From IMG/VR virus record IMGVR_UViG_2617270938_000001: a stretch of DNA of 23,613 nucleotides. The stretch is one strand, 5' to 3'. Source of the stretch: a virus (taxonomy: Duplodnaviria > Heunggongvirae > Uroviricota > Caudoviricetes). Under the pieces are notes generated by a model. The model was not told the DNA's origin, searched no databases, and was given only the letters and a program-made list of their open reading frames with translations. A program made the translations under genes and the position numbers. Of this stretch, positions 124 through 22,280 are shown piece after piece; the first letter of the stretch is position 1; each line of letters starts with the position of its first letter.

Positions 124-177
124 CTCTGCAAAACCTCTGCAAAACCCCTCTGCAAAACTGGTCATCAAATGACCAGT
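124..177. repeat. attL-proximal repeats: three tandem copies of CTCTGCAAAAC (124-134, 135-145, 148-158) followed by inverted repeat CTGGTCAT-caa-ATGACCAG (159-177)
   Basis: Read directly from the sequence. Located between the host gene stop and the int stop, where an attL core or integrase binding sites are expected; the inverted repeat overlaps the last int codons. Confidence 0.5.
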
Positions 178-1295
178 TTTTTCCATTCCTTACCGCGTGC
201 GTCGTTGTAAATATCGGTCATTTTTTGATTCGAATGGCCCAGCAAAATTTTGGTATCAACCCCCTGCTCTCTGAACAATCGCTCTGATAAAGATCTCTGC
301 TCATGGAAAGAGGGTGGGGTGCCATTAGCACGCCAGTTGTAATCCACAGAATCCCGGGCTTTTTTAAATGCAACGGTTAATGTTGCTGGCTTAACCATCC
401 CGCCGCGCTTAGCTGTCCCTTTCGCGTGATGGTGGTGCAATAGCCACGGACTAAGAACGCAATCGCGGCAGGATGACACCACATCATCTAGGGTGAGATT
501 TAATTTATCGCAACGCAGAGCCAGAGGGATGGCAATCCGGGTTCCTGTTTTTTGCTGTTCGACATGAAGATAACCATCCCGGATATCCGAAAATTGCATT
601 TTGCAAATATCTGAAAGGCGCTGGCCTGTCATCAGTGCCAGCAGCATACCGCGCTGTAAAAAGTAACCATCCTTTTCCGCTGCGTTATAAATCATCATCC
701 ACTCATCAAAAGTCAGTCGCTGTCTTGATATCCGCACCTGCGGTTTTTTTGCCGATTCTGCAGGGTTAAAGCCTGGCGGGACATCGCCCGTTTGCTGAGC
801 TTCCCGGAAAACATCGATCAGTACCTTCCTGAAAATTTGTCCCATTCTGTTATGTCCTCTGGCCTTGTACTCTTCCAGTACTGATACCACATCTTTTACG
901 GTTATGGCATCTAACGGTCTGGTGCCAAAACGTTCATCAAATACCCTGAGAGGGGCCGCTTTCTGTTTCAGCGTGTTGAGTTTGATCTCGCCGTTTTCAT
1001 ATCTTTCCTGTTGAATTTTTCTGTAATTATTCAGAAAAATGGTAACGGTTGATGAACCGCCGGTATCACTAATAATTTTCTCCTGCAGACTGAGCATTTG
1101 TTCCATTTGCTGCCGGGCAAGACGGCTGTTCGCTTCTGCTGCAATAGTTTCTGCCAGTTTCTGGTCAATACTGCCGAGACCGTGATTTTTGCCTGTTATG
1201 GGATGCCTGTAACGCCAGTAAACTTTGTTATTTCTTTTGTCAAAATACGGAGATAATCCCGGAACATTGGTTTTATATTTTCGCGGGCGCGCCAT
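165..1295 (-). CDS. int: phage integrase, tyrosine recombinase (lambda Int family)
   Basis: 376-aa ORF. C-terminal region resembles lambda Int as I recall it (RLTFDEW..., GQRLSDICKM, HEQRSLSERL, LLGHSNQKMTDIYNDARGKEW), including the His/Arg and Tyr catalytic motifs. Sits next to the host junction with xis overlapping upstream. Confidence 0.9.
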   Translation of the reverse strand: MARPRKYKTNVPGLSPYFDKRNNKVYWRYRHPITGKNHGLGSIDQKLAETIAAEANSRLARQQMEQMLSLQEKIISDTGGSSTVTIFLNNYRKIQQERYENGEIKLNTLKQKAAPLRVFDERFGTRPLDAITVKDVVSVLEEYKARGHNRMGQIFRKVLIDVFREAQQTGDVPPGFNPAESAKKPQVRISRQRLTFDEWMMIYNAAEKDGYFLQRGMLLALMTGQRLSDICKMQFSDIRDGYLHVEQQKTGTRIAIPLALRCDKLNLTLDDVVSSCRDCVLSPWLLHHHHAKGTAKRGGMVKPATLTVAFKKARDSVDYNWRANGTPPSFHEQRSLSERLFREQGVDTKILLGHSNQKMTDIYNDARGKEWKKLVI

Positions 1296-4526: not shown

Positions 4527-5087
4527 TATCGCGTCCTCAACAATGAATTTTGTGATGCGGTGCCTGGTGCCTCCAGGTGACGTTAACCAGTTAACAATTA
4601 ACGCCGGATACAGAGAATCCACCCATAACACTGTTTTTGGTTTTAACTGTTCCGCGTGCGCTCAGCCGCATTCACCACATCACAAAATTCACTTTAAAAA
4701 GGGCGGCAGAGCAGTCACGGAGTAAAACTGATACCGCCAAACGTCACCAGAAAATTGATAACAGAGGGCGTTGCAGCGGGGTTGTCACTTAAGCGTATGG
4801 TCAACCTGACAACCCGGTGTCCTCAACGGGGAAGGAATACCCCCGCCATACTTACCGCCGCGCCATTTCGCGGAGTGCCACAACCGGAAGCGCACGGTCG
4901 ACGAAAATTTAACGACAGGCTATCTATGAACCAACAACTTCGCCGTGTGCTTTCGCGTTATGCCCTGACTTTTCAGGGAAATATCCTTTCAGTAAACTGT
5001 CAGTGCCGGATGCTCACCCGTGTCCGGCGCACGCACTCCACCTCACCCGTGGAGAACTCCTTAATCACCAACCCTCAGGAGGGTGAA

Positions 5088-5363
5088 ATGTCGACTGAAA
5101 ATGATGAAATCATTAACTCCCTGATACGCCAGATTAATAATTTTGATAAAGCATTGCAACATGCTGCGGCGCGTAGTGATATAACTCTTTTAGCAATTTC
5201 ATTTCTTGCATCTGTTATGGATAAAAATGAAGTCGTACGACAGAGTCTTGTTGATTATATCGACTCGCTTCAACCCGGCACTTTCAATCATGAGAGCTTC
5301 AATCATGAGAAAGAGCATGTTAAGTCTGTAATTAATTCTCTTATTTTGAATCAAAAGAATTAA
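5088..5363 (+). CDS. hypothetical protein (91 aa) on the opposite strand inside the leftward operon, AT-rich (moron-like)
   Basis: Strong SD AGGAGGG 4 nt before ATG 5088 (MSTENDEIINSLIRQINNF...). Low-GC segment. The upstream part of ORF 4755..5363 has no SD and looks like run-in. Confidence 0.5.
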   Translation: MSTENDEIINSLIRQINNFDKALQHAAARSDITLLAISFLASVMDKNEVVRQSLVDYIDSLQPGTFNHESFNHEKEHVKSVINSLILNQKN

Positions 5364-5661
5364 TGCTTTTTGTTGCAAAGTAATTTTCAAGGGGTTCTAT
5401 TCGAATCCCTTTCTTTTTCATTAACAAGCCAAACCCCTTATCAATGATGTCCATTAGATCCAGGAAGTATTTTTCATGTAAATCCTGGTTATCAGAGAGC
5501 TGCTTCTCTTCGTACAGCCCGATAAAGGCTCGGCGCACGTTACCGGATATAGTATCGATGGTTTCTTTTTCTATGGTACTCAGGTCAAGAGTCGCCAGTT
5601 GGGAACGAACTATAATCACTGCCATTTCCTGGAATTGCATTGGTAAATCTTTAAATTCCAT
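5341..5661 (-). CDS. hypothetical protein (106 aa)
   Basis: GAGG SD 7 nt upstream of the ATG at 5661; acidic protein MEFKDLPMQFQEM.... Its 3' end overlaps the 3' end of the convergent 5088..5363 gene by 23 bp. Confidence 0.5.
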   Translation of the reverse strand: MEFKDLPMQFQEMAVIIVRSQLATLDLSTIEKETIDTISGNVRRAFIGLYEEKQLSDNQDLHEKYFLDLMDIIDKGFGLLMKKKGIRIEPLENYFATKSINSFDSK

Positions 5662-5683
5662 TATTAGCCTCGTTGGTTAGCTA

Positions 5684-5902
5684 TTAACGTGGGTATGTAA
5701 TCATTCTGGCAATGCTTAATGCCGCTGCTTTTTCCAGCCTGGTGATATCCTGCTCCAGAGCGGACAGATTTTCAGCCTGCTTAGCCCTGGCTTCATTGGC
5801 CCATTTCAGATCCTGCGCTGCATTAATTTTCTGGCGCATCCACTCATAAAGTTCATCATCGGTATAGTCTGGCGCGATGATGACGGGTTCTCGTTTCTGC
5901 AT
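5684..5902 (-). CDS. hypothetical protein (72 aa, predicted helical)
   Basis: GAGGAA SD 7 nt upstream of the ATG; charged heptad-like sequence (...AQDLKWANEARAKQAENLSALEQDITRLEKAAA). Confidence 0.5.
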   Translation of the reverse strand: MQKREPVIIAPDYTDDELYEWMRQKINAAQDLKWANEARAKQAENLSALEQDITRLEKAAALSIARMITYPR

Positions 5903-5931
5903 ACTGATTCCTCGCGGTGCTGCTTCGCTTA

Positions 5932-6060
5932 TCAGCCGTTAGATTTTGCCGAGCTGGAAAGCGCCTGTTTAAACTCACTGAAGCTGAGAGCTTCTTCGCC
6001 TTCGGCAAGGCCTTCGAAGTATTCTTCGTAAGCCTTTTTCATGATTGTGTCGAAATCCAT
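5932..6060 (-). CDS. small acidic protein (42 aa), not in the ORF track (below its size cutoff)
   Basis: Hand-translated: MDFDTIMKKAYEEYFEGLAEGEEALSFSEFKQALSSSAKSNG. GGTGA SD upstream; start lies 1 nt after the stop of the upstream gene (tight coupling). Confidence 0.45.
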   Translation of the reverse strand: MDFDTIMKKAYEEYFEGLAEGEEALSFSEFKQALSSSAKSNG

Positions 6061-6061
6061 A

Positions 6062-6217
6062 TCACTCACCTGAGTTTCTTTCCAGCCAGCGACGGGCACC
6101 ATTTTCGGTTTTAAACGTTTTGCTTTTGGTATACGTCATCGCGGTGAATGTGCCGTCCTGGTTGGGAAACACGCCGTACACCAGAGATTCGTTGTTGCCA
6201 AGATCGATAGTATCCAT
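6062..6217 (-). CDS. small protein (51 aa), first gene of the leftward early operon
   Basis: Internal ATG with GAGG SD 5-6 nt upstream (MDTIDLGNNESLVYGVFPNQDGTF...). The longer 78-aa form (start 6298) has a weaker SD. Position matches small genes next to the repressor in Rac-type prophages. Confidence 0.45.
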   Translation of the reverse strand: MDTIDLGNNESLVYGVFPNQDGTFTAMTYTKSKTFKTENGARRWLERNSGE

Positions 6218-10731: not shown

Positions 10732-10942
10732 AAACGGTTTGCGGGAAAAGGAGAGTTAAGTAGAATTGCAGCGGGTGCTTGAGGCTATCTGTCTCAGGCA
10801 TGAACACCAAAAGGCAGATAGAGAAAAGCCCCAGTTAACATTACGCGTCCGGCAAGACGCTTAACATTAATCTGAGGCCATATCTATGCTCTACACACGT
10901 AGGTTAGCCTCTTACGTGCCGAAAGGCAAGGAGAAGCAGGCT

Positions 10943-11098
10943 ATGAAGCAGCAAAAGGCGATGCTAATCGCCCTGATCGTCATCTGTTTAACCGTCATTG
11001 TGACGGCACTGGTAACGAGGAAAGACCTCTGCGAGGTACGAATCCGAACCGGCCAGACGGAGGTCGCTGTCTTCACAGCTTACGAACCTGAGGAGTAA
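10943..11098 (+). CDS. hokD: Hok/Gef-family type I toxin (51 aa; matches my recollection of E. coli HokD/RelF)
   Basis: MKQQKAMLIALIVICLTVIVTALVTRKDLCEVRIRTGQTEVAVFTAYEPEE. AGGAGA SD 8 nt upstream. An in-frame upstream extension from ATG 10886 gives a 70-aa mok-like ORF. Confidence 0.9.
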   Translation: MKQQKAMLIALIVICLTVIVTALVTRKDLCEVRIRTGQTEVAVFTAYEPEE

Positions 11099-12603: not shown

Positions 12604-12978
12604 ATGCTCATAGATTTGGTTTTACCTTACCCGCCGACGGTGAACACTTACTGGCGACGCCGTGGCAGCACATATTTTGTATCAAAAGCCGGGGAGCGTT
12701 ATCGCCGGGCAGTGGCGCTTATTGTTCGCCAGCAGCGGCTGAAATTAAGCCTGTCCGGAAGGCTGGCGATAAAGGTGATTGCAGAGCCACCGGATAAGCG
12801 TCGTCGCGACCTGGACAATATCCTGAAAGCACCGCTGGATGCGCTGACGCATGCGGGAGTGTTAATGGACGATGAGCAGTTTGATGAAATCAATATCGTT
12901 CGTGGTCAGCCAGTATCTGGTGGACGTCTGGGGGTGAAGATTTACCCCATAATGCATGAAGAGCAGGTCAAAAAATGA
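12604..12978 (+). CDS. rusA: Holliday junction resolvase RusA
   Basis: 124 aa with PPTVNTYWRRRG and RRRDLDNILKAPLDAL, matching the RusA motifs I recall (PPSNNRYYR... / RRRDLDNLQKA...). AGAGG SD. Confidence 0.85.
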   Translation: MLIDLVLPYPPTVNTYWRRRGSTYFVSKAGERYRRAVALIVRQQRLKLSLSGRLAIKVIAEPPDKRRRDLDNILKAPLDALTHAGVLMDDEQFDEINIVRGQPVSGGRLGVKIYPIMHEEQVKK

Positions 12979-13796
12979 AACTGGAAGATTTACCGAAATA
13001 CTACTCCCCAAAATCCCCCGGCCTGACTGATGCATCGGCCTCAACGTCGAAAGATGCGCTGAGTATCACTGATGTGATGGCCGCGCAGGGCATGACACAG
13101 AATCGGGCTGAGATGGGGTTTTCTGCGTTCCTTGGGAAAATGGGCATCAGTATGAATGACAGGGCGCGGGCAACAGAATTACTGGCAGATTATGCACTCA
13201 GTCGGTGCGATCGTGTGGCGGCGTTGAGAAAACTTCCGGCAGAAATAAAACCGGTAGTGATGCGCATTATGGCTTCGTACGCTTTTGAGGATTATGCCCG
13301 CAGCGCAGCGAGTAAAAAGCAGTGCCCTTGTTGCTATGGGGAAAAATTTATTGAAAGCATAGTTTTTACAAACAAGGTCCAGTATCCGGATGGTAAGCCG
13401 CCGGTATGGGCAAAGTGTACGAAAGGTGTGTATCCGTCTTACTGGGAAGAATGGAAAAAAGTCAGGGAGGTGGTAAAAGTTGCCTGTCCGGAGTGTGGCG
13501 GAAAGGGTGAGGTTTCCACCGCCTGTAAGGATTGCCGTGGGCGTGGTGTCGCCATTCATCGTGAAGAGTCGGTAAAACGTGGTATGCCTGTTATCAGAGA
13601 CTGCCAGCGTTGTGATGGTCGTGGCTGTGAAAGACTACCATCAACGGAGGCATTTAATGCCATACGCAAAGTGACGAGTGCTATCACGCTTGATACGTGG
13701 AAAAAATCAGTGAAACGCTTTTACGATACGTTGGTGGTTCGGTTTGACATTGAAGAGGCATGGGCGGAGCGGCAGTTAAAGAGGGTAACGCGATAG
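12975..13796 (+). CDS. late-gene antitermination protein Q (82/21/933W type)
   Basis: 273 aa with a Cys-rich zinc motif (CPECGGKGEVSTACKDCRGRG ... CQRCDGRG). Overlaps the rusA stop (ATGA); followed immediately by a promoter/terminator pair. Confidence 0.8.
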   Translation: MKLEDLPKYYSPKSPGLTDASASTSKDALSITDVMAAQGMTQNRAEMGFSAFLGKMGISMNDRARATELLADYALSRCDRVAALRKLPAEIKPVVMRIMASYAFEDYARSAASKKQCPCCYGEKFIESIVFTNKVQYPDGKPPVWAKCTKGVYPSYWEEWKKVREVVKVACPECGGKGEVSTACKDCRGRGVAIHREESVKRGMPVIRDCQRCDGRGCERLPSTEAFNAIRKVTSAITLDTWKKSVKRFYDTLVVRFDIEEAWAERQLKRVTR

Positions 13797-13900
13797 TGTT
13801 GTTGATTTTTCCCGAATCTGTGGTAAATTTGCTCTAACGATGGGCGTTTTATGCCTGACGTTAGAGGATTTTTACACCCCGCCGCCTGGCGGGTTTTTTA
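13797..13900 (+). promoter_or_regulatory. pR'-like late promoter with downstream tR'-like intrinsic terminator (CCCCGCC-GCCT-GGCGGG + TTTTTT at 13877-13899)
   Basis: TTGATT ... TGTGGTAAAT promoter-like elements directly after Q, then a GC hairpin with T-run about 50 bp downstream, the layout of the lambdoid short pR' transcript. Confidence 0.55.
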
Positions 13901-14021
13901 TGACTGAAATCGCGTCAGTACAGTAAACGCGCTGGTGGCGGTGAATACCTGTCTTTCAGCTTGCTGGCTTTTTCGACAAGAGTTATTGGTGTGTCACGTT
14001 AACCGGAAAAGGGAAAAAGAC

Positions 14022-14219
14022 ATGCTAAAACAGCAGGATATGACAGAAACCGCCAGAGTGGTGTTTAATGAATTAAGCGTTACCGACCCGGCGACAGTCG
14101 GGGAGATTGCGCAGAATACTTACCTTTCACGCGAACGCTGCCAGTTAATACTGACCCAGCTGGTTATGGCGGGTCTGGCAGACTATCAGTTCGGTTGTTA
14201 CAGACGCCTTCCGCAGTGA
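14022..14219 (+). CDS. small HTH/winged-helix-like DNA-binding protein (65 aa) upstream of the methyltransferase
   Basis: ATG 14022 with AAGGGA SD (MLKQQDMTETARVVFNELSVTDPATVGEIAQNTYLSRERCQLIL...). Terminator GCCTTC-loop-GAAGGC + T7 overlaps the stop (14206-14230). Confidence 0.5.
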   Translation: MLKQQDMTETARVVFNELSVTDPATVGEIAQNTYLSRERCQLILTQLVMAGLADYQFGCYRRLPQ

Positions 14220-14370
14220 AGGCTTTTTTTATTTGTGGTAAATGGGCGGCTGGTGGGTGTTAGGGGCACTCACCAGCCATCTGCTCATGCGTTGGGTTCA
14301 CAAGCAAACCTCAGGCCCACTGCTTTGCGCAAAAGCAGAATGAGCCTATCAGAGACAGGCTTAATGATCC

Positions 14371-15420
14371 ATGCTTAATACTGTAAAAATATCCAGTTGT
14401 GAGTTAATCAACGCCGACTGCCTGGAATTTATCCGGTCGTTACCCGAAAATTCTGTTGACCTGATAGTCACGGACCCGCCGTACTTTAAAGTGAAGCCTG
14501 AGGGCTGGGATAACCAGTGGAAGGGCGACGATGATTACCTGAAGTGGCTGGACCAGTGTCTGGCGCAGTTCTGGCGGGGGCTGAAACCTGCCGGAAGTCT
14601 TTACCTGTTCTGTGGTCATCGCCTGGCATCTGATATCGAAATCATGATGCGTGAACGCTTCAGTGTGCTGAACCATATTATCTGGGCGAAGCCGTCCGGA
14701 CGCTGGAACGGATGCAACAAGGAAAGCCTGCGGGCGTATTTCCCCGCCACAGAGCGCATTCTGTTCGCGGAACATTATCAGGGGCCGTATCGTCCGAAAG
14801 ATGCCGGGTATGCGGCGAAGGGCAGTGCACTGAAACAGCATGTGATGGCCCCGCTGATTTCTTACTTTCGTGATGCGCGCGCGGCCCTGGGGATAACGGC
14901 AAAACAGATTGCAGATGCCACAGGAAAGAAAAACATGGTGTCGCACTGGTTCAGTGCCAGTCAGTGGCAGCTACCGAACGAAAGCGATTATCTGAAATTA
15001 CAGTCGCTGTTTGCCCGGGTGGCAGAAGAGAAACATCAGCGGGGAGAACTGGAAAAGTCCCATTACCAACTGGTCAGCACATACAGTGAGCTGAACCGGC
15101 AGTATACGGAACTGCTGAGTGAATATAAAAATTTGCGGAGGTATTTCGGTGTGACGGTGCAGGTGCCGTACACCGATGTGTGGACGTATAAACCGGTGCA
15201 GTACTATCCAGGGAAACATCCGTGCGAAAAACCGGCAGAAATGCTGCAGCAGATAATCAGCGCAAGTAGTCGTCCTGGTGATCTGGTTGCGGATTTTTTC
15301 ATGGGGTCGGGTTCAACGGTAAAAGCGGCGATGGCACTGGGGCGTCGTGCGATTGGTGTTGAGCTGGAGACCGGACGTTTTGAGCAGACAGTCAGGGAAG
15401 TTCAGGATTTAATCGTTTGA
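14371..15420 (+). CDS. orphan DNA methyltransferase, beta-class amino-methyltransferase (N6-adenine or N4-cytosine)
   Basis: 349 aa. Motif IV DPPY near the N-terminus (LIVTDPPYF) and AdoMet motif I near the C-terminus (DFFMGSGST), the permuted order of beta-class MTases. No adjacent restriction endonuclease candidate. Confidence 0.85.
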   Translation: MLNTVKISSCELINADCLEFIRSLPENSVDLIVTDPPYFKVKPEGWDNQWKGDDDYLKWLDQCLAQFWRGLKPAGSLYLFCGHRLASDIEIMMRERFSVLNHIIWAKPSGRWNGCNKESLRAYFPATERILFAEHYQGPYRPKDAGYAAKGSALKQHVMAPLISYFRDARAALGITAKQIADATGKKNMVSHWFSASQWQLPNESDYLKLQSLFARVAEEKHQRGELEKSHYQLVSTYSELNRQYTELLSEYKNLRRYFGVTVQVPYTDVWTYKPVQYYPGKHPCEKPAEMLQQIISASSRPGDLVADFFMGSGSTVKAAMALGRRAIGVELETGRFEQTVREVQDLIV

Positions 15421-15469
15421 AACGGATGAGATTGCAGAATTAATTACGCACCATTATTATTCTGCTCCC

Positions 15470-15540
15470 GGCCCTTTAGCTCAGTGGTGAGAGCGAGCTA
15501 AAGGGCCGGGTCGCTGGTTCAAATCCAGCAAGGGCCACCA
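15470..15540 (+). tRNA. tRNA-Ile-like element with aberrant anticodon arm (probable tRNA pseudogene)
   Basis: Acceptor GGCCCTT/AAGGGCC, D-arm GCTC-AGTGGTGA-GAGC, T-arm GCTGG-TTCAAAT-CCAGC and 3' ACCA are intact. The anticodon-arm region is 12 nt (AGCTAAAGGGCC) instead of 17 and is perfectly complementary to the element's own 5' end. Confidence 0.5.
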
Positions 15541-15549
15541 TATCACATA

Positions 15550-15626
15550 CCACCATTAGCTCATCGGGATAGAGCGCCAGCCTTCGAAGCTGGTTGCGCG
15601 GGGTTCGAGTTCTCGATGGCGGTCCA
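15550..15626 (+). tRNA. tRNA-Arg (anticodon TCG)-like; candidate tRNA with imperfect stems
   Basis: D-arm GCTC-ATCGGGATA-GAGC; anticodon arm CCAGC-CTTCGAA-GCTGG; T-loop TTCGAGT; 3' CCA. One A-C mismatch in the acceptor stem and two G-T pairs in the T-stem. Confidence 0.45.
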
Positions 15627-15640
15627 TTTATCGGTATTCT

Positions 15641-15700
15641 GCGTTGTTAGCTCAGCCGGACAGAGCAATTGCCTTCTAAGCAGCTGTGGTTGCACTCCTG
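15641..15700 (+). pseudogene. tRNA-Arg (anticodon TCT)-like 5' fragment lacking a recognisable T-arm and 3' acceptor
   Basis: GCGTTGT-TA-GCTC-AGCCGGACA-GAGC-A-ATTGC-CTTCTAA-GCAGC resembles tRNA-Arg(UCU) through the anticodon loop, but the downstream sequence has no GGTTCGAATCC-like T-arm. Confidence 0.4.
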
Positions 15701-15882
15701 TTGTTTCTGGTGGTGATGGTGGACTTCAGCAGCCGGATAATGTCGGTGCTGTCTGATGGTGTTTTGGTGGCGGGTGTGTGGTTGTTGCTTTCCCGTTGCT
15801 GAAAAAGAAAGCATCAGGCGATTAGCAGGGTATCAGTTACCCGTTGAAATTTTTAAATACCTCACAATTCCACAGCTTGATG

Positions 15883-16080
15883 ATTGTCTGGCTGCCGGAG
15901 AATTTGTTAAAAATAACATCGCATGGTGAATCCCCCTCAGCGGCGGGGCATCTGGCAAAGTGTATGATCCAGAGAACATGCAAATTCAGTAGACAGGCTG
16001 AATTTACCGGGAGGCCCCTGGCACCATGCGACAGACAGAAATTAGGCTATACTTCAGCCCCTCTCCGGAGGGGCTTTTCT
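15883..16080 (+). ncRNA. candidate noncoding RNA element A (about 198 nt), paralog of element B, ending in intrinsic terminator AGCCCCTC-TCCG-GAGGGGCT + TTTT
   Basis: Shares blocks with 16352-16545 (ATTGTCTGGC, TTTGTTAAAAA, CGCATGGTGAATCCCCCT, GAATTnACCGGGAGGCnCCnGGCACCATGC, identical terminator hairpin). The overlapping ORFs are on different strands in the two copies, arguing against a shared protein. Confidence 0.45.
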
Positions 16081-16268
16081 GTGCAGGATGTGTCACAGTT
16101 TCCTGAATTCTGAGTACTGTCCTGTTACTCAGGGTGCTATATTTTCTGACGTGATGAAAGTCTGCCGGAAGGCGGAACGTATCGGAAATGACCCAGTAGA
16201 GAAAACGTTGACTCAGATACCGATGCTGAGTTACCGGGAAACCGGCATCACATGACCGCTATCCTTCC

Positions 16269-16292
16269 AGGCTCGCTCCGGCGGGCCTTTTT
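16269..16292 (+). terminator. intrinsic terminator between the two repeat elements (GGCTCGC-TCCG-GCGGGCC + TTTTT)
   Basis: GC-rich stem with tetraloop followed by a T-run; about 30 bp upstream lie TAAAAT and CATAAT -10-like hexamers preceding element B. Confidence 0.5.
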
Positions 16293-16351
16293 ACTGCAGA
16301 AAACAGTTTTCCCGTAAAATGCCACGTTGCTCATAATTCAGGCTGGCGATT

Positions 16352-16545
16352 ATTGTCTGGCCGGCGGGAAGTTTGTTAAAAAATTTCGCATGGTGAATCC
16401 CCCTGTGCGGAGGGGTAATCAGCGAGTAGGTATATGGGATAATCGCGGATTCAGGTGCTGGTACTGAATTCACCGGGAGGCACCCGGCACCATGCAATGG
16501 CACATAGCGCCACTCTCCAGCCCCTCTCCGGAGGGGCTGTTTATA
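16352..16545 (+). ncRNA. candidate noncoding RNA element B (about 194 nt), paralog of element A, same terminator hairpin (16519-16538)
   Basis: See element A. The conserved 5' block, the GGTGAATCCCCCT block, the GGGAGGC block and the terminator are retained while the middle has diverged. Confidence 0.45.
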
Positions 16546-16573
16546 TTGATTTTGTCAGATGTGAGTAAACTCC

Positions 16574-16909
16574 TTATGGACTTTGTTGTTTTAGTCCATA
16601 AGGACATATTTGCAGAGTGCAACGGTTATTAAAGCATTCATTCAATACGTTATCTGTATTTGTAGGGCATTCCTGGCTGTTTTTGATTAAATTCCAGAAT
16701 GTTTTATTGAATGGTACTACGTTGTAAATGGTTACAGGTAGCACTTTGTTATTGAGCATGATACCTGTGTGAGTCAGTGTAAATATACTTTCAGGAGGTA
16801 AGAAAGCATCCGATTGATACCAGATTATTAATTTTACTTTACTCCATATGACTGAAAAAGATATTCCGCATGATGGCTGGATAACTGTATCAATCACAAT
16901 CCACTTCAT
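16574..16909 (-). CDS. IraM/YcgW-family protein (anti-adaptor-like), AT-rich moron on the opposite strand
   Basis: 111 aa, [22 protein letters not shown]...IIWYQS...FLPP...ECP...ICPYGLK, matching my recollection of E. coli IraM from memory (not searched). AAGGAAG SD 6 nt upstream. Local GC is much lower than the flanks; a perfect 11-bp inverted repeat (16584-16615) covers the last codons. Confidence 0.6.
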
Positions 16910-17169
16910 TTAGCTTCCTTGTTTATGCCTTGCTGGTGATGTTCTGAAAAGTATAAATGATATTTTTGAATATAAACCATAGAGCAGAATTATTTTTCTG
17001 ATGTTGTTTATTGTTTATTTAAATGCAGGGTGGTTTATATCTCGTCTTGTAGTTTATCCATGCATATCTGCTTGATGATCAGGTTTCTATTTAAGGTATG
17101 GTTTTGTGTTTTTTCTGTGTTACATGTCTGGTATTTTAAAGAATTATTTTTCAGATGGTGGAAAGAACC

Positions 17170-17358
17170 ATGGCATTTAAACACTATGATGTTGTCAGGG
17201 CGGCGGCGCCGTCAGATCTTGCGGAAAAGCTGACACATAAACTGAAAGAGGGCTGGCAGCCGTTTGGTAGTCCGGTGGCCATAACCCCTTATACCCTGAT
17301 GCAGGCGATTGCAGCAGAAGGTGATGTGGTGGTCAGTGGTGCAACTGAGCCGGAGTGA
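17170..17358 (+). CDS. small conserved hypothetical protein (62 aa) upstream of the holin (possibly DUF1737-like)
   Basis: MAFKHYDVVRAAAPSDLAEKLTHKLKEGWQPFGSPVAI...; position just before the lysis cassette. Family name is recalled, not verified. Confidence 0.45.
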   Translation: MAFKHYDVVRAAAPSDLAEKLTHKLKEGWQPFGSPVAITPYTLMQAIAAEGDVVVSGATEPE

Positions 17359-17600
17359 TACTACGTCATCGTACTGGCCCGGCATTCCAGGCCATAAAAG
17401 ACGGTCTGGCAGTGGGACTAAATGCACTGACGCTGACGGATATTACCAAAAATGCAACGTATGGCGTTGAGATAGAAAGTCTGGTGCTGGAGATAAATAC
17501 ACCGGCATCATCATAAAAAGTGAGCCAGTCAAATGGAAGGTATCGTTAAACTCACCGGTAGTGTCAGTGGAGCGTCTGAGACGCTTGCATGAGTTATCAG

Positions 17601-17633
17601 AGCCATCAGTAGTTAACTGGTGGCTTTTTTATT
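17601..17633 (+). terminator. intrinsic terminator-like hairpin just upstream of the holin (AGCCATCAG-tagttaa-CTGGTGGCT + TTTTTTATT)
   Basis: 9-bp stem with one G-T pair followed by a T-run; promoter-like TTGAGA ... GATAAAT about 100-130 bp upstream. Confidence 0.5.
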
Positions 17634-17665
17634 GTTGTCAGCTTCCGGATAACGGGAGACGGGGT

Positions 17666-17881
17666 ATGGACCAGATGGAAAAAATCACAACAGGTGTGTC
17701 ATACACCACGTCAGCGGTGGGAACGGGCTACTGGTTCCTGCAGTTGCTGGACAGGGTTTCCCCGTCTCAGTGGGCGGCAATAGGCGTGCTGGGGAGTCTG
17801 CTGTTTGGGCTGCTGACATATCTGACTAACCTGTATTTCAAAATCAGAGAGGACCGTCGTAAGGCGGCACGGGGAGAGTAA
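17666..17881 (+). CDS. class II holin, phage 21 S21-type pinholin (71 aa) with dual-start motif
   Basis: [71 protein letters not shown], close to S21 as I recall it; Met1 and Met4 give the dual start. The track ORF 17561..17881 includes upstream run-in. Confidence 0.85.
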
Positions 17882-17885
17882 TTCA

Positions 17886-18236
17886 ATGACTCAAAACTAT
17901 GAACTGATTGTGAAAGGGATCCGCAATTTTGAGAATAAAGTTACGGTAACTTTAGCGTTACGGGACAAAAAACGCTTTGACGGTGAAATTTTTGACCTGG
18001 ACATCTCGCTGGACCGTGTTGAAGGTGCCGCGCTGGAGTTTTATGAGGCAGCAGCCAGAATGAGCATCAGACAGGTCTTCCTGGATGTTGCTGCCGGGTT
18101 ATGTGAAGGGGATGAGCAGTCGCCGGAAAAGCGCCCCGTAATTTTAGAGGCGCAGAATGTATGGATAACCTACAAAGGAAAGCTACCGGGAAGAATTACT
18201 GGTTCTCTGAAGACTCCTCCGGAATCACAACCTTAA
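17886..18236 (+). CDS. hypothetical protein (116 aa) embedded between holin and endolysin (YdfR-like position)
   Basis: GGGGAGAG SD; starts 5 nt after the holin stop. Some lambdoid prophages carry a gene at this position, but I cannot verify the family. Confidence 0.55.
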   Translation: MTQNYELIVKGIRNFENKVTVTLALRDKKRFDGEIFDLDISLDRVEGAALEFYEAAARMSIRQVFLDVAAGLCEGDEQSPEKRPVILEAQNVWITYKGKLPGRITGSLKTPPESQP

Positions 18237-18299
18237 GTCACTGACCGGAACAGATAAACCTGTCCGTGGGCAGAAACCGATAAATCCTGATAAATATCC

Positions 18300-18833
18300 A
18301 TGAACACCAAAATCAAATACGGCCTGTCGGCTGCCGTTCTGGCGCTGATTGCCGCTGGTGCGCCTGCGCCTGACATTCTCGACCAGTTTCTGGATGAAAA
18401 GGAAGGTAACCACACCACGGCATACCGTGATGGCGCGGGTATCTGGACCATCTGCCGCGGTGCCATCCTGGTGGATGGCAAACCTGTCGTTCCGGGCATG
18501 AAGTTGTCGAAGGAAAAATGCGACCGGGTTAACGCCATTGAGCGTGATAAGGCGCTGGCATGGGTGGAGAAAAACATCAAAGTGCCATTGAGCGAACCCC
18601 AGAAAGCGGGGATCGCGTCATTCTGTCCGTACAACATTGGTCCCGGTAAGTGTTTCCCGTCGACGTTTTATAAACGAATTAATGCAGGTGATCGCAGGGG
18701 AGCGTGTGAGGCGATTCGCTGGTGGATTAAGGACGGTGGCAGAGACTGCCGTATTCGTTCAAACAACTGCTACGGTCAGGTATCCCGTCGTGACCAGGAG
18801 AGCGCGCTGGCGTGCTGGGGTATCGACAGATAA
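18300..18833 (+). CDS. endolysin, lysozyme (T4-lysozyme / GH24-like) with N-terminal SAR (signal-anchor-release) domain
   Basis: 177 aa. Gly/Ala-rich weakly hydrophobic N-terminus (GLSAAVLALIAAGAPAP) followed by a lysozyme-like core (EGNHTTAYRDGAGIWTICRG ...), as in phage 21 R. Follows the pinholin. Confidence 0.85.
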   Translation: MNTKIKYGLSAAVLALIAAGAPAPDILDQFLDEKEGNHTTAYRDGAGIWTICRGAILVDGKPVVPGMKLSKEKCDRVNAIERDKALAWVEKNIKVPLSEPQKAGIASFCPYNIGPGKCFPSTFYKRINAGDRRGACEAIRWWIKDGGRDCRIRSNNCYGQVSRRDQESALACWGIDR

Positions 18834-19131: not shown

Positions 19132-19497
19132 ATGAACCGCGTACTGTGCGTGGTCATCATTGCCCTGCTGGTGGCCTGTGGTGCGCTTAGTCTGGGGCTG
19201 AATCATTACCGTGATAACGCCATAACCTACAAAGAGCAGCGCGATAAAAAAGTCAGTGAGCTGGAGCAGGCAAATGCAACCATTACTGATATGCAGCAGC
19301 GCCAGCGTGATGTTGCTGTACTTGATGCCAGATACTCGAGGGAATTAGCCGATGCGAGAGCTGAAAATGAAACTCTGCGCGCTGACGTTGCCGCTGGTCG
19401 TAAGCGCCTGCGGATCAACGCCACCTGCCCCGGTACCCGAACACGGCACTGGTCGGCGTGCAGGTGGACTCGGAACAGTTCGGCAGCCAGCAGGTGA
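19132..19497 (+). CDS. i-spanin Rz, N-terminal ~90 aa only; C-terminus replaced by out-of-frame J sequence (likely pseudogene); no Rz1 found
   Basis: [93 protein letters not shown] closely parallels lambda Rz; similarity is lost at about 19400-19420 where the J frame opens. Confidence 0.7.
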
Positions 19498-22280
19498 GCC
19501 GTAATTATCATCTTCGCGGGCGCATTCTGCAGGTGCCGTCGAACTATAACCCGCAGACGCGGCAATACAGCGGTATCTGGGACGGAACGTTTAAGCCAGC
19601 ATACAGCAACAACATGGCCTGGTGTCTGTGGGATATGCTGACCCATCCGCGCTACGGCATGGGGAAGCGTCTCGGTGCGGCGGATGTGGACAAATGGGCG
19701 CTGTATGTCATCGGCCAGAATTGCGACCAGTCGGTGCCGGATGGCTTTGGTGGCACGGAGCCGCGCATCACCTGTAATGCCTACCTGACCACACAGCGCA
19801 AGGCGTGGGATGTTCTCAGTGATTTCTGCTCGGCGATGCGCTGTATGCCGGTATGGAACGGGCAGACGCTGACGTTCGTGCAGGACCGACCGTCGGATAA
19901 GGTGTGGACCTATAACCGCAGTAATGTGGTGATGCCGGATGATGGCGCGCCGTTCCGCTACAGCTTCAGTGCCCTGAAGGACCGTCATAATGCCGTTGAG
20001 GTGAACTGGATTGACCCGGATAACGGCTGGGAGACGGCGACAGAGCTTGTTGAAGATACGCAGGCCATTGCCCGTTACGGTCGTAACGTCACGAAGATAG
20101 ATGCCTTTGGCTGTACCAGCCGGGGGCAGGCACATCGCGCCGGGCTGTGGCTGATTAAAACAGAACTGCTGGAAACGCAGACCGTGGACTTCAGCGTGGG
20201 TGCTGAAGGGCTTCGCCATGTGCCGGGCGATGTCATTGAAATCTGTGATGATGACTATGCCGGTATCAGCACCGGTGGTCGCGTGCTGGCGGTGAACAGC
20301 CAGACCCGGACGCTGACGCTCGACCGTGAAATCACGCTGCCATCCTCCGGTACCACGCTGATAAGCCTGGTTGACGGTCAGGGTAATCCGGTCAGCGTGG
20401 AGGTCCAGTCCGTCACCGACGGCGTGAAGGTGAAAGTGAGCCGTGTTCCTGACGGCGTTGCCGGATACAGCGTGTGGGGGCTGAAGCTGCCGACGCTGCG
20501 CCAGCGCCTGTTCCGCTGCGTGAGTATCCGTGAGAACGACGACGGCACGTATGCCATCACCGCCGTGCAGCATGTACCGGAAAAAGAAGCCATCGTGGAT
20601 AACGGGGCGCACTTTGACGGCGACCAGAGCGGCACGGTGAATGGTGTCACGCCGCCAGCGGTGCAGCATCTGACCGCAGAAGTCACCGCAGACAGCGGGG
20701 AATACCAGGTGCTGGCCCGCTGGGACACGCCGAAGGTGGTGAAGGGCGTGAGCTTCCTGCTTCGCCTGACCGTGGCAGCGGATGACGGCAGTGAGCGGCT
20801 GGTCAGCACGGCCCGGACGACGGAAACCACTTACCGCTTCACACAACTGGCTCTGGGGAACTACAGGCTGACAGTCCGGGCAGTAAATGCGTGGGGGCAG
20901 CAGGGCGATCCGGCGTCGGTATCGTTCCGGATTGCCGCACCGGCAGCGCCGTCGCGGATTGAGCTGACGCCGGGCTATTTTCAGATAACCGCCACGCCGC
21001 ATCTTGCGGTTTATGATCCGACGGTACAGTTTGAGTTCTGGTTCTCGGAAAAGCGGATTGCGGATATCAGGCAGGTTGAAACCACAGCACGCTATCTTGG
21101 GACGGCGCTGTACTGGATAGCCGCCAGTATCAATATCAGGCCGGGTCATAATTATTATTTTTACGTTCGCAGTGTGAACACCGTTGGCAAATCGGCATTC
21201 GTGGAGGCTGTTGGTCAGCCGAGTGATGACGCATCCGGCTATCTGGATTTTTTCAAAGGCGAGATAGGGAAAACCCATCTGGCTCAGGAGCTGTGGACGC
21301 AGATTGATAACGGTCAGCTTGCGCCTGACCTGGCTGAAATCAGAACATCCATTACGGATGTCAGCAATGAAATCACACAGACCGTCAATAAGAAACTGGA
21401 AGACCAGAGTGCGGCAATTCAGCAGATACAGAAGGTTCAGGTTGATACAAATAATAACCTGAACAGCATGTGGGCTGTGAAGCTGCAGCAGATGCAGGAC
21501 GGACGCCTTTATATCGCGGGTATTGGTGCCGGTATTGAGAACACCCCTGACGGCATGCAGAGTCAGGTGCTGCTGGCGGCAGACAGGATTGCGATGATTA
21601 ATCCTGCGAATGGCAACACAAAGCCGATGTTTGTTGGGCAGGGCGATCAGATATTCATGAACGACGTGTTCCTGAAACGCCTGACGGCTCCCACCATTAC
21701 CAGCGGCGGTAATCCTCCGGTATTTTCCCTGACACCGGACGGGCGGCTGACGGCGAAAAATGCCGATATCAGCGGTAACGTGAATGCGAACTCCGGGACG
21801 CTCAACAACGTCACGATTAACGAGAACTGTCGGGTTCTGGGAAAACTGTCTGCGAACCAGATTGAAGGCGATCTCGTTAAAACAGTGGGCAAAGCTTTCC
21901 CCCGGGACTCCCGTGCACCGGAGCGGTGGCCATCAGGGACCATTACCGTCAGGGTTTATGACGATCAGCCGTTTGACCGGCAGATTGTTATTCCCGCGGT
22001 GGCGTTTCGTGGCGCTAAACATGAGCGGGAGAATAACGATATTTATTCGTCATGCCGCCTGATGGTGAAGAAAAACGGTGCTGAAATTTATAACCGTACC
22101 GCGCTGGATAATACGCTGGTTTATACAGGTGTTATTGATATGCCTGCTGGTCGCGGTCACATGACGCTGGAGTTTTCGGTATCAGCGTGGCTGGTAAATG
22201 ACTGGTATCCCACAGCCAGTATCAGTGATTTGCTGGTTGTGGTGATGAAGAAATCCACAGCAGGTATCACGATTAGCTGA
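19404..22280 (+). CDS. J: tail-tip host specificity protein J, 5'-truncated (C-terminal ~940-960 codons; no upstream J sequence, start codon or promoter of its own)
   Basis: Long high-GC ORF with the size, position (immediately before lom and stf) and motifs expected of lambda J's C-terminal two-thirds. The frame is open from 19404; the track ORF begins at GTG 19458. Head and tail-shaft genes are absent upstream. Confidence 0.8.

Follow-up and report, generated by a model that had tools for sequence, protein, structure and literature searches.

A probable two-tier cargo slot between antiterminator Q and the holin of a defective lambdoid Escherichia coli prophage, homologous to the flanks of stx2

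The viral record IMGVR_UViG_2617270938_000001 (here the window, the whole stretch of 23,613 nucleotides [nt] that was analysed) contains an Escherichia coli prophage in which the antiterminator gene Q and the holin gene are set far apart, with 3,869 nt between the stop codon of Q and the start of the holin gene, versus 676 nt in phage λ. We propose that this interval is a late-promoter cargo ("moron") slot of a λ-Q-type, now defective, prophage, and that its passengers are expressed in two tiers, some in the lytic phase by Q-modified polymerase coming from the late promoter pR', and others autonomously in the lysogen; taken as a whole, we regard this reading as probable. An earlier account of the same DNA, made from its letters only (the sequence-only reading), had described the gap as cargo resembling the stx locus of Shiga toxin (Stx) phages, and its coordinates and inventory proved essentially right, with the corrections given below. 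The slot is real but largely ordinary. The iraL gene, the M.EcoGII methylase, the small RNA (sRNA) STnc100/EcOnc27/PasD and nanS-p each have their own published papers; a moron insertion site at PR', together with sRNAs linked to it, was put forward as a concept in 2014 (PMC4104026), and the sRNAs PasD/STnc100 and PasA/PasC have been tied to the esterase-holin region and to Stx phages (bioRxiv 10.64898/2026.05.13.724894). Since the architecture and nearly each passenger had already been described, the novelty of the locus is low.

As judged by sequence comparison, the interval is a stx-less homologue of the region flanking stx2 in Stx phages. In phage Stx2_EH1910 (LC567834) the order is Q, an open reading frame (ORF) of 65 amino acids (aa), a methylase gene, three tRNA genes, stx2A/stx2B, an opposite-strand gene annotated as "iraM", yjhS (nanS-p), two small ORFs and the holin gene, with the STnc100 sRNA located between stx2AB and the iraM-like gene. 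BLAST alignment of the window with this phage displayed 92% identity from Q to position 15682, in the middle of the third tRNA, where the homology stops; it restarts at 15862, at the STnc100 element, with about 72% identity over STnc100, the iraM-like gene and the start of nanS-p, and 93% at the holin. The segment of Stx2_EH1910 that carries stx2AB (4789-6199 of our locus L002) is skipped by the homology, and no stxA or stxB ORF occurs in the window. Because blockwise identity is found on both sides of the missing stx2AB, the interval is homologous to the stx flanks and not a mere look-alike, which sharpens the resemblance noticed earlier. The region matched 398 phage records, the majority of them Stx-converting. 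Nor does the interval represent a universally conserved core module, the alternative that the sequence-only reading had itself named, since relatives carry IS200C, stx2AB or hicAB in the same place, hicAB lying between the methylase and the holin in Klebsiella prophages. The passengers are modular and exchangeable between phages; relatives have the winged-helix/methylase cassette, the tRNAs, stx or sRNA, iraL and nanS-p independently of one another.

The promoter-proximal end of the slot resembles that of a Q-controlled late operon. The Q protein matches λ Q in PDB 7ubm (E-value 1.4e-38), which assigns it to the λ Q family, and a DnaJ-like CxxCxGxG zinc-finger segment is inserted in it. A three-way alignment of λ, the window and the Stx2a phage EH1910 showed that the block GGTAAATTTG..AACGATGGG is invariant and that it includes the -10 and pause elements; the pR'- and tR'-like signals noted earlier after Q were both recovered. 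The promoter consists of the -35 hexamer TTGATT (13802-13807), the -10 hexamer TAAATT (13824-13829) and the σ70 pause-inducing element AACGAT(GGG) (13836-13844), whose roles we take to be those established for λ pR'; its +1 would fall at about 13836. The hairpin of tR' (13878-13893) has a 6-bp all-GC stem followed by TTTTTT, and the terminator spans 13878-13899. A known Q family, a pause-bearing late promoter directly after Q and tR' shortly downstream were thus all found. The RNA of about 64 nt delimited by these signals would be a positional analogue of λ 6S RNA and of StxS; StxS has been described in Stx phages, and constitutive activity of pR' in both λ and Stx phages (PMC7547250). Further downstream, terminator-like sites number 16 in the interval versus 3.3 ± 1.7 expected in shuffles, and six strong intrinsic terminators of the plus strand stand between pR' and the holin, at 13878, 14206, 16056, 16269, 16518 and 17599. 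Therefore, judging by position and by the λ precedent, polymerase from pR' should reach the holin only if it is terminator-resistant.

On these grounds, the first tier would operate as follows. Transcription would start constitutively at pR', pause at AACGAT and stop at tR', releasing the short RNA; once Q is made, its binding to the Q-binding element (QBE) of pR' would turn the polymerase terminator-resistant, allowing it to pass the six terminators and to transcribe the winged-helix gene, the methylase, the tRNA remnants and the nanS-p stump, and then the holin-endolysin genes. The methylase would serve in this phase as a DNA-protection enzyme, shielding replicating phage DNA from restriction, and would be too toxic for the lysogen.

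The methylase itself had been listed as an orphan methyltransferase forming part of a regulatory cargo; the enzyme class stands, but not the regulatory role, as the protein belongs to the M.EcoGII family of non-specific adenine methylases. Its motifs follow the beta-class order, with an N-terminal DPPY (VTDPPYF), the target recognition domain and a C-terminal FxGxG (FFMGSGST). With M.EcoGII (supplement file 5 of PMC11551740) it shares 336 of 350 residues (~96%), a count taken from a machine-read supplement in which a few mismatches may be reading errors, and it is 93% identical to the methylase of phage 1720a-02, named as a close relative of M.EcoGII (PMC5778455). Methylases of solved structure in PDB are distant relatives only (E-value about 1e-26). 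M.EcoGII methylates adenine non-specifically, is inactive in the lysogen and is harmful when constitutively expressed (PMC5778455); this toxicity and silence are in keeping with the position of the gene downstream of two terminators, tR' being the first. By its similarity to M.EcoGII, the enzyme of the window probably methylates adenine in any context. At codon 70 (14578-14580) it has Gly, the residue being Val in M.EcoGII, in the 1720a-02 enzyme and in the reconstructed ancestors of PMC11551740 (FWRVLKPAGS).

The second tier is expected to act in the lysogen, and its best-founded member is the opposite-strand gene, which had been called IraM-like and falls in the IraM family of NCBIfam (Table 1), more specifically as iraL. 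The encoded protein matches the IraM structure PDB 8twd (E-value 8e-32) and is 62% identical to K-12 IraM (66 of 107 residues), the same relationship as in the IraL paper, which gives 58.9% identity to IraM by ClustalW (PMC4045071). Together with 245 nt upstream, the gene is 98.1% identical to the CFT073 locus over 581 nt, which, with 95% identity to CFT073 iraL taken as the lower limit, places it in the iraL and not in the iraM clade, and the 5' end of the CFT073 mRNA, ACATCACCAGCAAGGCATAAACAAGGAA (PMC4045071), is present in the window. By homology, the transcription start site (TSS) lies at 16942, with the -10 element TATACT at 16955-16950. In CFT073, IraL binds RssB and stabilises RpoS in logarithmic phase, and the σ70 TSS was mapped by rapid amplification of cDNA ends (5'-RACE) (PMC4045071); from its sequence, IraL of the window would likewise bind RssB and stabilise RpoS. 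In the lysogen, iraL would therefore be transcribed from its own opposite-strand σ70 promoter, with its product blocking RssB.

The other candidates for autonomous expression are the STnc100 elements. Two sRNA-like repeats had been reported previously; both are full copies of the Rfam family STnc100, although the count was incomplete, as an additional degenerate copy lies between them. The two full copies share an upstream block (-35 TTGTCT, 18 nt, TGT-TAAAAA) that the middle copy does not have, and this block yields a putative promoter for copy 1 (-35 TTGTCT at 15884-15889, extended -10 TGT-TAAAAA at 15905-15913) and for copy 2 (-35 at 16353-16358, extended -10 at 16374-16382). CFT073 has one copy only, to which copy 2 is orthologous (97.5% identical). 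Copy 1 is ~73-77% identical to the CFT073 copy, and the two full copies of the window are ~73% identical to each other; owing to this divergence of copy 1, the array did not arise by recent duplication. The copy that follows stx2B is EcOnc27/sRNA103, which binds Hfq and was detected as a discrete sRNA in uninduced enterohaemorrhagic E. coli (EHEC) (PMC12711010), and by analogy the copies of the window may be expressed as discrete Hfq-associated sRNAs in the lysogen, from their own promoter-like blocks and ending at their own terminators; the short pR' RNA would also be produced autonomously. Among the sRNAs sought, the anti-sRNAs AgvB and AsxR gave no Rfam match at E<=1 in 13700-18000. The hedged wording of "late and/or autonomous control" in the sequence-only reading agrees with these features, given the mapped iraL promoter of CFT073 and the terminators of the STnc100 copies. 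The iraL tier has been demonstrated in the 98%-identical CFT073 locus, and the remainder of the two-tier logic is an inference from the features of the window.

Table 1. Features of the Q-holin interval and of its borders, in positions of the window. CDS, coding sequence; AF2, AlphaFold2; pLDDT, predicted local distance difference test.
Feature	Position	Strand	Evidence and remarks
Antiterminator Q	12975-13796	+	273 aa; PF03589 at 169 bits; PF00684 at E 4e-6
Late promoter pR', λ-type	13802-13841	+	alignment with λ and Stx2a phage EH1910
Short pR'-tR' transcript, ~64 nt (predicted)	13836-13899	+	terminator scan; fold -21.9 kcal/mol, z -2.1
65-aa winged-helix protein gene	14022-14219	+	AF2 pLDDT 85.4, H-H-H-beta-beta; Foldseek
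Conserved structured methylase leader	14233-14370	+	~130-150 nt; main hairpin P1 14248-14278
M.EcoGII-family beta-class non-specific adenine DNA methyltransferase, 349 aa	14371-15420	+	PF01555 at 147 bits
ileZ-like tRNA (CAU) pseudogene	15470-15537	+	Rfam tRNA 51.5 bits; not called by ARAGORN
tRNA-Arg (UCG), argN-like	15550-15626	+	sole ARAGORN call; Rfam 44.9 bits
argO-like tRNA-Arg (UCU), 42-nt 5' half	15641-15682	+	sequence comparison; BLAST breakpoints
DUF3927 mini-ORF, 38 aa, hydrophobic	15683-15799	+	PF13064 42 bits vs cut-off 25; annotated in MS 85-1
STnc100 copy 1	15884-16084 (RF02076 15891-16084)	+	138.8 bits vs gathering 47; terminator 16056-16075
Degenerate STnc100-like copy	16120-16295	+	RF02076 30 bits, E 8e-4, below gathering; terminator 16269-16288
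STnc100 copy 2	16353-16548 (RF02076 16360-16548)	+	132.5 bits; terminator 16518-16539
iraL, RssB anti-adaptor	16574-16955 (CDS 16574-16909)	-	NF007393 161.4 bits vs cut-off 121
nanS-p pseudogene	17155-17516	+	DUF1737 stump 17155/17170-17358 (PF08410 61 bits) and 53-codon 3' remnant 17355-17516
Structured pre-holin RNA	17517-17636	+	fold -37.9 kcal/mol, z -3.1; 12-bp terminator 17599-17627 and T-run
Lysis cassette	17666-18833	+	PF04971, PF07041, PF00959

Upstream of the methylase, the gene described before as encoding a small helix-turn-helix protein specifies, according to its structural model, a winged helix: the top Foldseek matches of the model are winged-helix domains (query TM-scores [TMq] of 0.7-0.8), the RNA-binding winged helix of SelB being among them, and homologues of the protein are named TrmB-family or DprA-like WH. 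Its stop codon falls inside the hairpin/terminator at 14206-14232. Scanning a single genome of each species yielded 80 loci whose methylases show 60-96% identity, from Escherichia to Proteus, Xenorhabdus and Photorhabdus; the winged-helix ORF is found directly upstream of the methylase in 59 of them, from Escherichia to Proteus and Xenorhabdus, and about 20 of the 80 have the leader and the methylase without it. The pair was also observed as a two-gene cassette between Q and the holin in the context of three Q families (PF03589, PF06323 and PF06530-like) and differing holins, in E. coli, Klebsiella and Salmonella.

In E. coli, Klebsiella and Salmonella, conservation is higher in the stretch separating the winged-helix ORF from the methylase ATG than in the coding DNA on either side, and the leader is conserved from Escherichia to Proteus and Photorhabdus. 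From an alignment of 34 sequences RNAalifold predicted a long hairpin, P1, with compensatory changes in 7 of its 13 pairs and frequent G.U pairs, which argue for an RNA over a DNA operator. In the alignment, 97% of the P1 cells are paired versus 30-42% with slid partners, and none of 500 shuffles attained the observed values. A covariance model of P1 gave one match per locus at a constant offset from the methylase (about 57 loci of Enterobacterales), and one match in the window. A second, weaker motif was noticed in the Trabulsiella locus (L018, 2525-2587; 33.6 bits), ~840 nt upstream of the main one. The leader matched no Rfam family at E<=1. A coding reading of it, as a 47-codon ORF (14235-14378), was rejected, since homologues differ by 1-nt indels inside; the leader is therefore not protein-coding. 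No Shine-Dalgarno sequence is evident before the methylase ATG (14371), and in the minimum-free-energy (MFE) fold of the window the AUG is paired. A conserved helix sequestering the AUG was considered and dropped: it is present in that fold, but substitutions in other species are not consistently compensated.

Of the three tRNA-like elements listed previously, all are present, but two are dead and the third bears two weakening changes, so that the three full cloverleaves of a functional ileZ-argN-argO array were not found. When compared with intact 76-nt copies, the ileZ-like element turned out to carry, in place of the anticodon arm, a reverse complement of the tRNA's 5' end, which forms a perfect 13-bp hairpin (GGCCCTTTAGCTC...GAGCTAAAGGGCC) that is supported by fold calculation. 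This variant was found in 0 of 5,426 complete E. coli genomes, the best match being 91%, and its form suggests either templated mutation at a quasi-palindrome or an artefact of assembly. The argN-like tRNA-Arg(UCG) has an A3.C70 mismatch and G53.U61 relative to the Stx2a phage copy; by its sequence it looks like the only usable tRNA of the three. The argO-like element ends after the anticodon loop, exactly at the left homology breakpoint with Stx phages (15682), and a literature search for ileZ/argN/argO gave no results. The GTG start of the DUF3927 mini-ORF is placed precisely at this junction; CFT073, by comparison, has an undamaged tRNA, and its DUF3927 ORF is found 500 nt further along.

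Toward the holin, the presumed 62-aa gene exists as an ORF, but not as a functional gene: it is the DUF1737 N-terminal remnant of nanS-p. The layout described for nanS-p products is DUF1737, SASA and a C-terminal region (PMC10462455). Compared with the full gene of strain B-1109, which keeps nanS-p at full length, about 1.49 kb including the SASA domain have been deleted between 16-bp repeats, and the same deletion occurs in CFT073 and MS 85-1. With DUF1737 alone and the SASA catalytic domain missing, the remnant does not qualify as NanS-p. The structured pre-holin RNA that follows may be an sRNA derived from the 3' end of the nanS-p transcript, in the manner of PasA and PasC. Its terminator is located directly before the holin ribosome-binding site, and from 17597 on the sequence is ~93% shared with many Stx1 and Stx2 phages. 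An identification with the PasA of the reference phage YYZ-2008 (NC_011356) was rejected, as similarity between that phage and the window begins only in the holin coding region. The lysis cassette comprises an S21-type class II holin (17666-17881; PF04971, 112 bits), a DUF1327/YdfR gene (17886-18236; PF07041) and a lysozyme (18300-18833; PF00959, 85 bits) that begins with MNTKIKYGLSAAVLALIAAGAPAP, a hydrophobic N-terminus. The combination is that of an S21-type pinholin with a signal-arrest-release (SAR) endolysin, and from its sequence the lysozyme would show SAR behaviour.

Several points weigh against the two-tier reading. A σ70 scan of the interval revealed no plus-strand promoter above chance at threshold (5 found versus 5.1 expected), and pR' itself scored 8/12; because the scan performed no better than chance, the promoter assignments rest on homology and conservation. 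For the STnc100 upstream block the promoter assignment is our reading of its conservation, and the Q-dependence of the genes in the interval is presumed from their position and from the precedent of λ and Stx phages. Prophage decay, with loss of the genes from terminase to tail, two dead tRNAs and the nanS-p deletion, also counts against it, given that the lytic role of the methylase may no longer be exercised. The absence of plus-strand promoters in the scan would suit another arrangement, in which the whole cargo belongs to one Q-dependent late operon, as stx2 does in 933W, and none of it is expressed autonomously in the lysogen, and indeed all elements but iraL lie on the plus strand downstream of pR'. 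However, iraL runs opposite to the late transcript, and in the nearly identical CFT073 locus its σ70 TSS was mapped by 5'-RACE; relatives of the STnc100 copies are discrete Hfq-bound sRNAs in uninduced EHEC, and the copies have terminators and a conserved promoter-like block of their own; furthermore, pR' is itself constitutive in λ and Stx phages (PMC7547250). We therefore consider a single late operon very improbable.

Decay raises another explanation, namely that a dying prophage has left mostly inert debris in the interval, its passengers being lost through deletion and mutation and iraL alone contributing to the host. At 19132-22280, Rz is truncated (positions 1-83 of 126 of the Pfam profile) and is followed by a fused or overlapping ORF for the C-terminal 940 residues of J, the tail-tip protein; as Rz is joined to a 5'-truncated J and the terminase, head and tail genes are deleted, the prophage is defective and cannot make virions. 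Consequently, its lytic-phase functions may be relics, with iraL and the sRNAs the likeliest to matter to the host today. To this may be added the loss of the anticodon arm in the first tRNA, the changes in the second and the halving of the third, as well as the missing catalytic domain of nanS-p and the degenerate middle STnc100. Conversely, the ORFs of Q, the winged-helix protein, the methylase, iraL, the holin and the endolysin are all intact, hundreds of genomes preserve the arrangement at 97-99% identity, both full STnc100 copies reach roughly three times the gathering threshold of Rfam and CFT073 iraL is demonstrably functional, for which reasons we find the debris explanation unlikely. 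A further alternative concerns the late tier: the winged-helix gene and the methylase might constitute a self-regulating cassette, in which the protein, the leader or both gate the methylase as Com does on mom, Q read-through being necessary but not sufficient. In phage Mu, Com is a zinc finger, and the small gene com precedes the toxic DNA-modification gene mom. Recurrence of the pair across Q families, holins and host genera speaks for such a cassette, as do the position of the winged-helix ORF in most loci, a leader conserved beyond coding DNA with a covarying, wobble-containing hairpin, the lack of a Shine-Dalgarno sequence together with the paired AUG, and the SelB domain among the fold matches. 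On the other side, about 20 of the 80 loci keep leader and methylase without the winged-helix gene, and this weakens the protein as an obligatory partner of the methylase; covariation is confined to P1, the AUG-sequestering helix is inconsistent, and the inverted repeat could also be a DNA operator, although the G.U pairs speak for RNA. We hold this alternative to be possible, yet somewhat doubtful. With similar reserve, we put forward the leader as a possibly undescribed cis-regulatory RNA that, alone or with the 65-aa protein, would gate translation or processing of the toxic methylase and so confine the enzyme to the lytic phase, a Com/mom-like catch on top of Q antitermination.

Beyond the interval, the window holds a nearly whole lambdoid E. 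coli prophage, with an integrase gene (165-1295, minus strand), DicF, hok/sok, DUF968, RusA, Q, the lysis genes and the tail-tip gene. Its early region includes further regulatory RNAs, the DicF antisense RNA (4701-4752, minus strand; 77 bits) and sok of hok/sok (10773-10948, plus strand; 117 bits). When a 5.4-kb query spanning the region was compared with the 5,426 complete E. coli genomes, 774 of them covered 80% or more of its length; 426 have the exact slot content of the window and 1,446 carry iraL. The late-promoter slot of Stx phages is thus kept by a prophage that lacks stx and is common among commensal and extraintestinal strains of E. coli, and the slot mixes lytic-phase tools such as a non-specific methylase with lysogen-phase host regulators, namely the RpoS stabiliser IraL and Hfq-type sRNAs. 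This offers context for stx gain and loss and for strain differences in RpoS control, but each part of the slot had been published before. The methylase leader is a modest new lead and could be the one repaying further work; if its proposed role is true, it could explain the silence of a methylase that is harmful when constitutive, which is relevant to users of M.EcoGII as a tool enzyme.

The similarity to Mu com-mom is a functional analogy: in both cases a toxic DNA-modification gene is directly preceded by a small gene, a leader stem-loop is conserved and expression is late (as predicted for the window), but sequence and fold are unrelated (zinc finger versus winged helix) and the small gene is missing from a fifth of the loci. 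The methylase is closest to M.EcoGI/M.EcoGII of E. coli O104:H4 C227-11 (Murray et al., 2018; PMC5778455), which are likewise prophage-borne and of 349 aa, with ~96% identity and the DPPY/FxGxG motifs, the allele of the window being distinguished by V70G among about 12 differences. The STnc100 elements agree with STnc100/EcOnc27 (sRNA103)/PasD in their RF02076 match, in their place between the stx slot and nanS-p and in the 3' terminator, whereas the window has two diverged full copies and a degenerate third in tandem. With λ, the window shares the Q family, the -10 TAAATT, the AACGATGGG pause element and a terminator soon after; unlike the window, λ has a 676-nt gap without cargo and a 6S RNA of 194 nt (versus ~64 nt), and the Q of the window has the zinc-finger insert and a differing stretch between -35 and -10, the QBE region.

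The best relative among toxin-carrying phages is Stx2_EH1910, in which a quuQ-type Q, pR'/tR', the 65-aa ORF, the methylase and the tRNA array are followed in the same order by STnc100, the opposite-strand anti-adaptor, the nanS-p start and an S21-type holin. The window differs from this phage in having no stx2AB, in a third tRNA cut at the anticodon loop and followed by the DUF3927 mini-ORF and extra STnc100 copies, in an anti-adaptor just 72% identical, in the internally deleted nanS-p and in being a defective prophage. Compared with the potB-island prophage of CFT073, a carrier of iraL (Hryckowian et al., 2014; PMC4045071), which has IS200C in place of the winged-helix/methylase cassette, three intact tRNAs and a single STnc100, the window shares Q (93%), the tRNAs, STnc100 copy 2, iraL with its promoter, DUF3927, the same nanS-p deletion stump and the same holin, at 97.5% identity.

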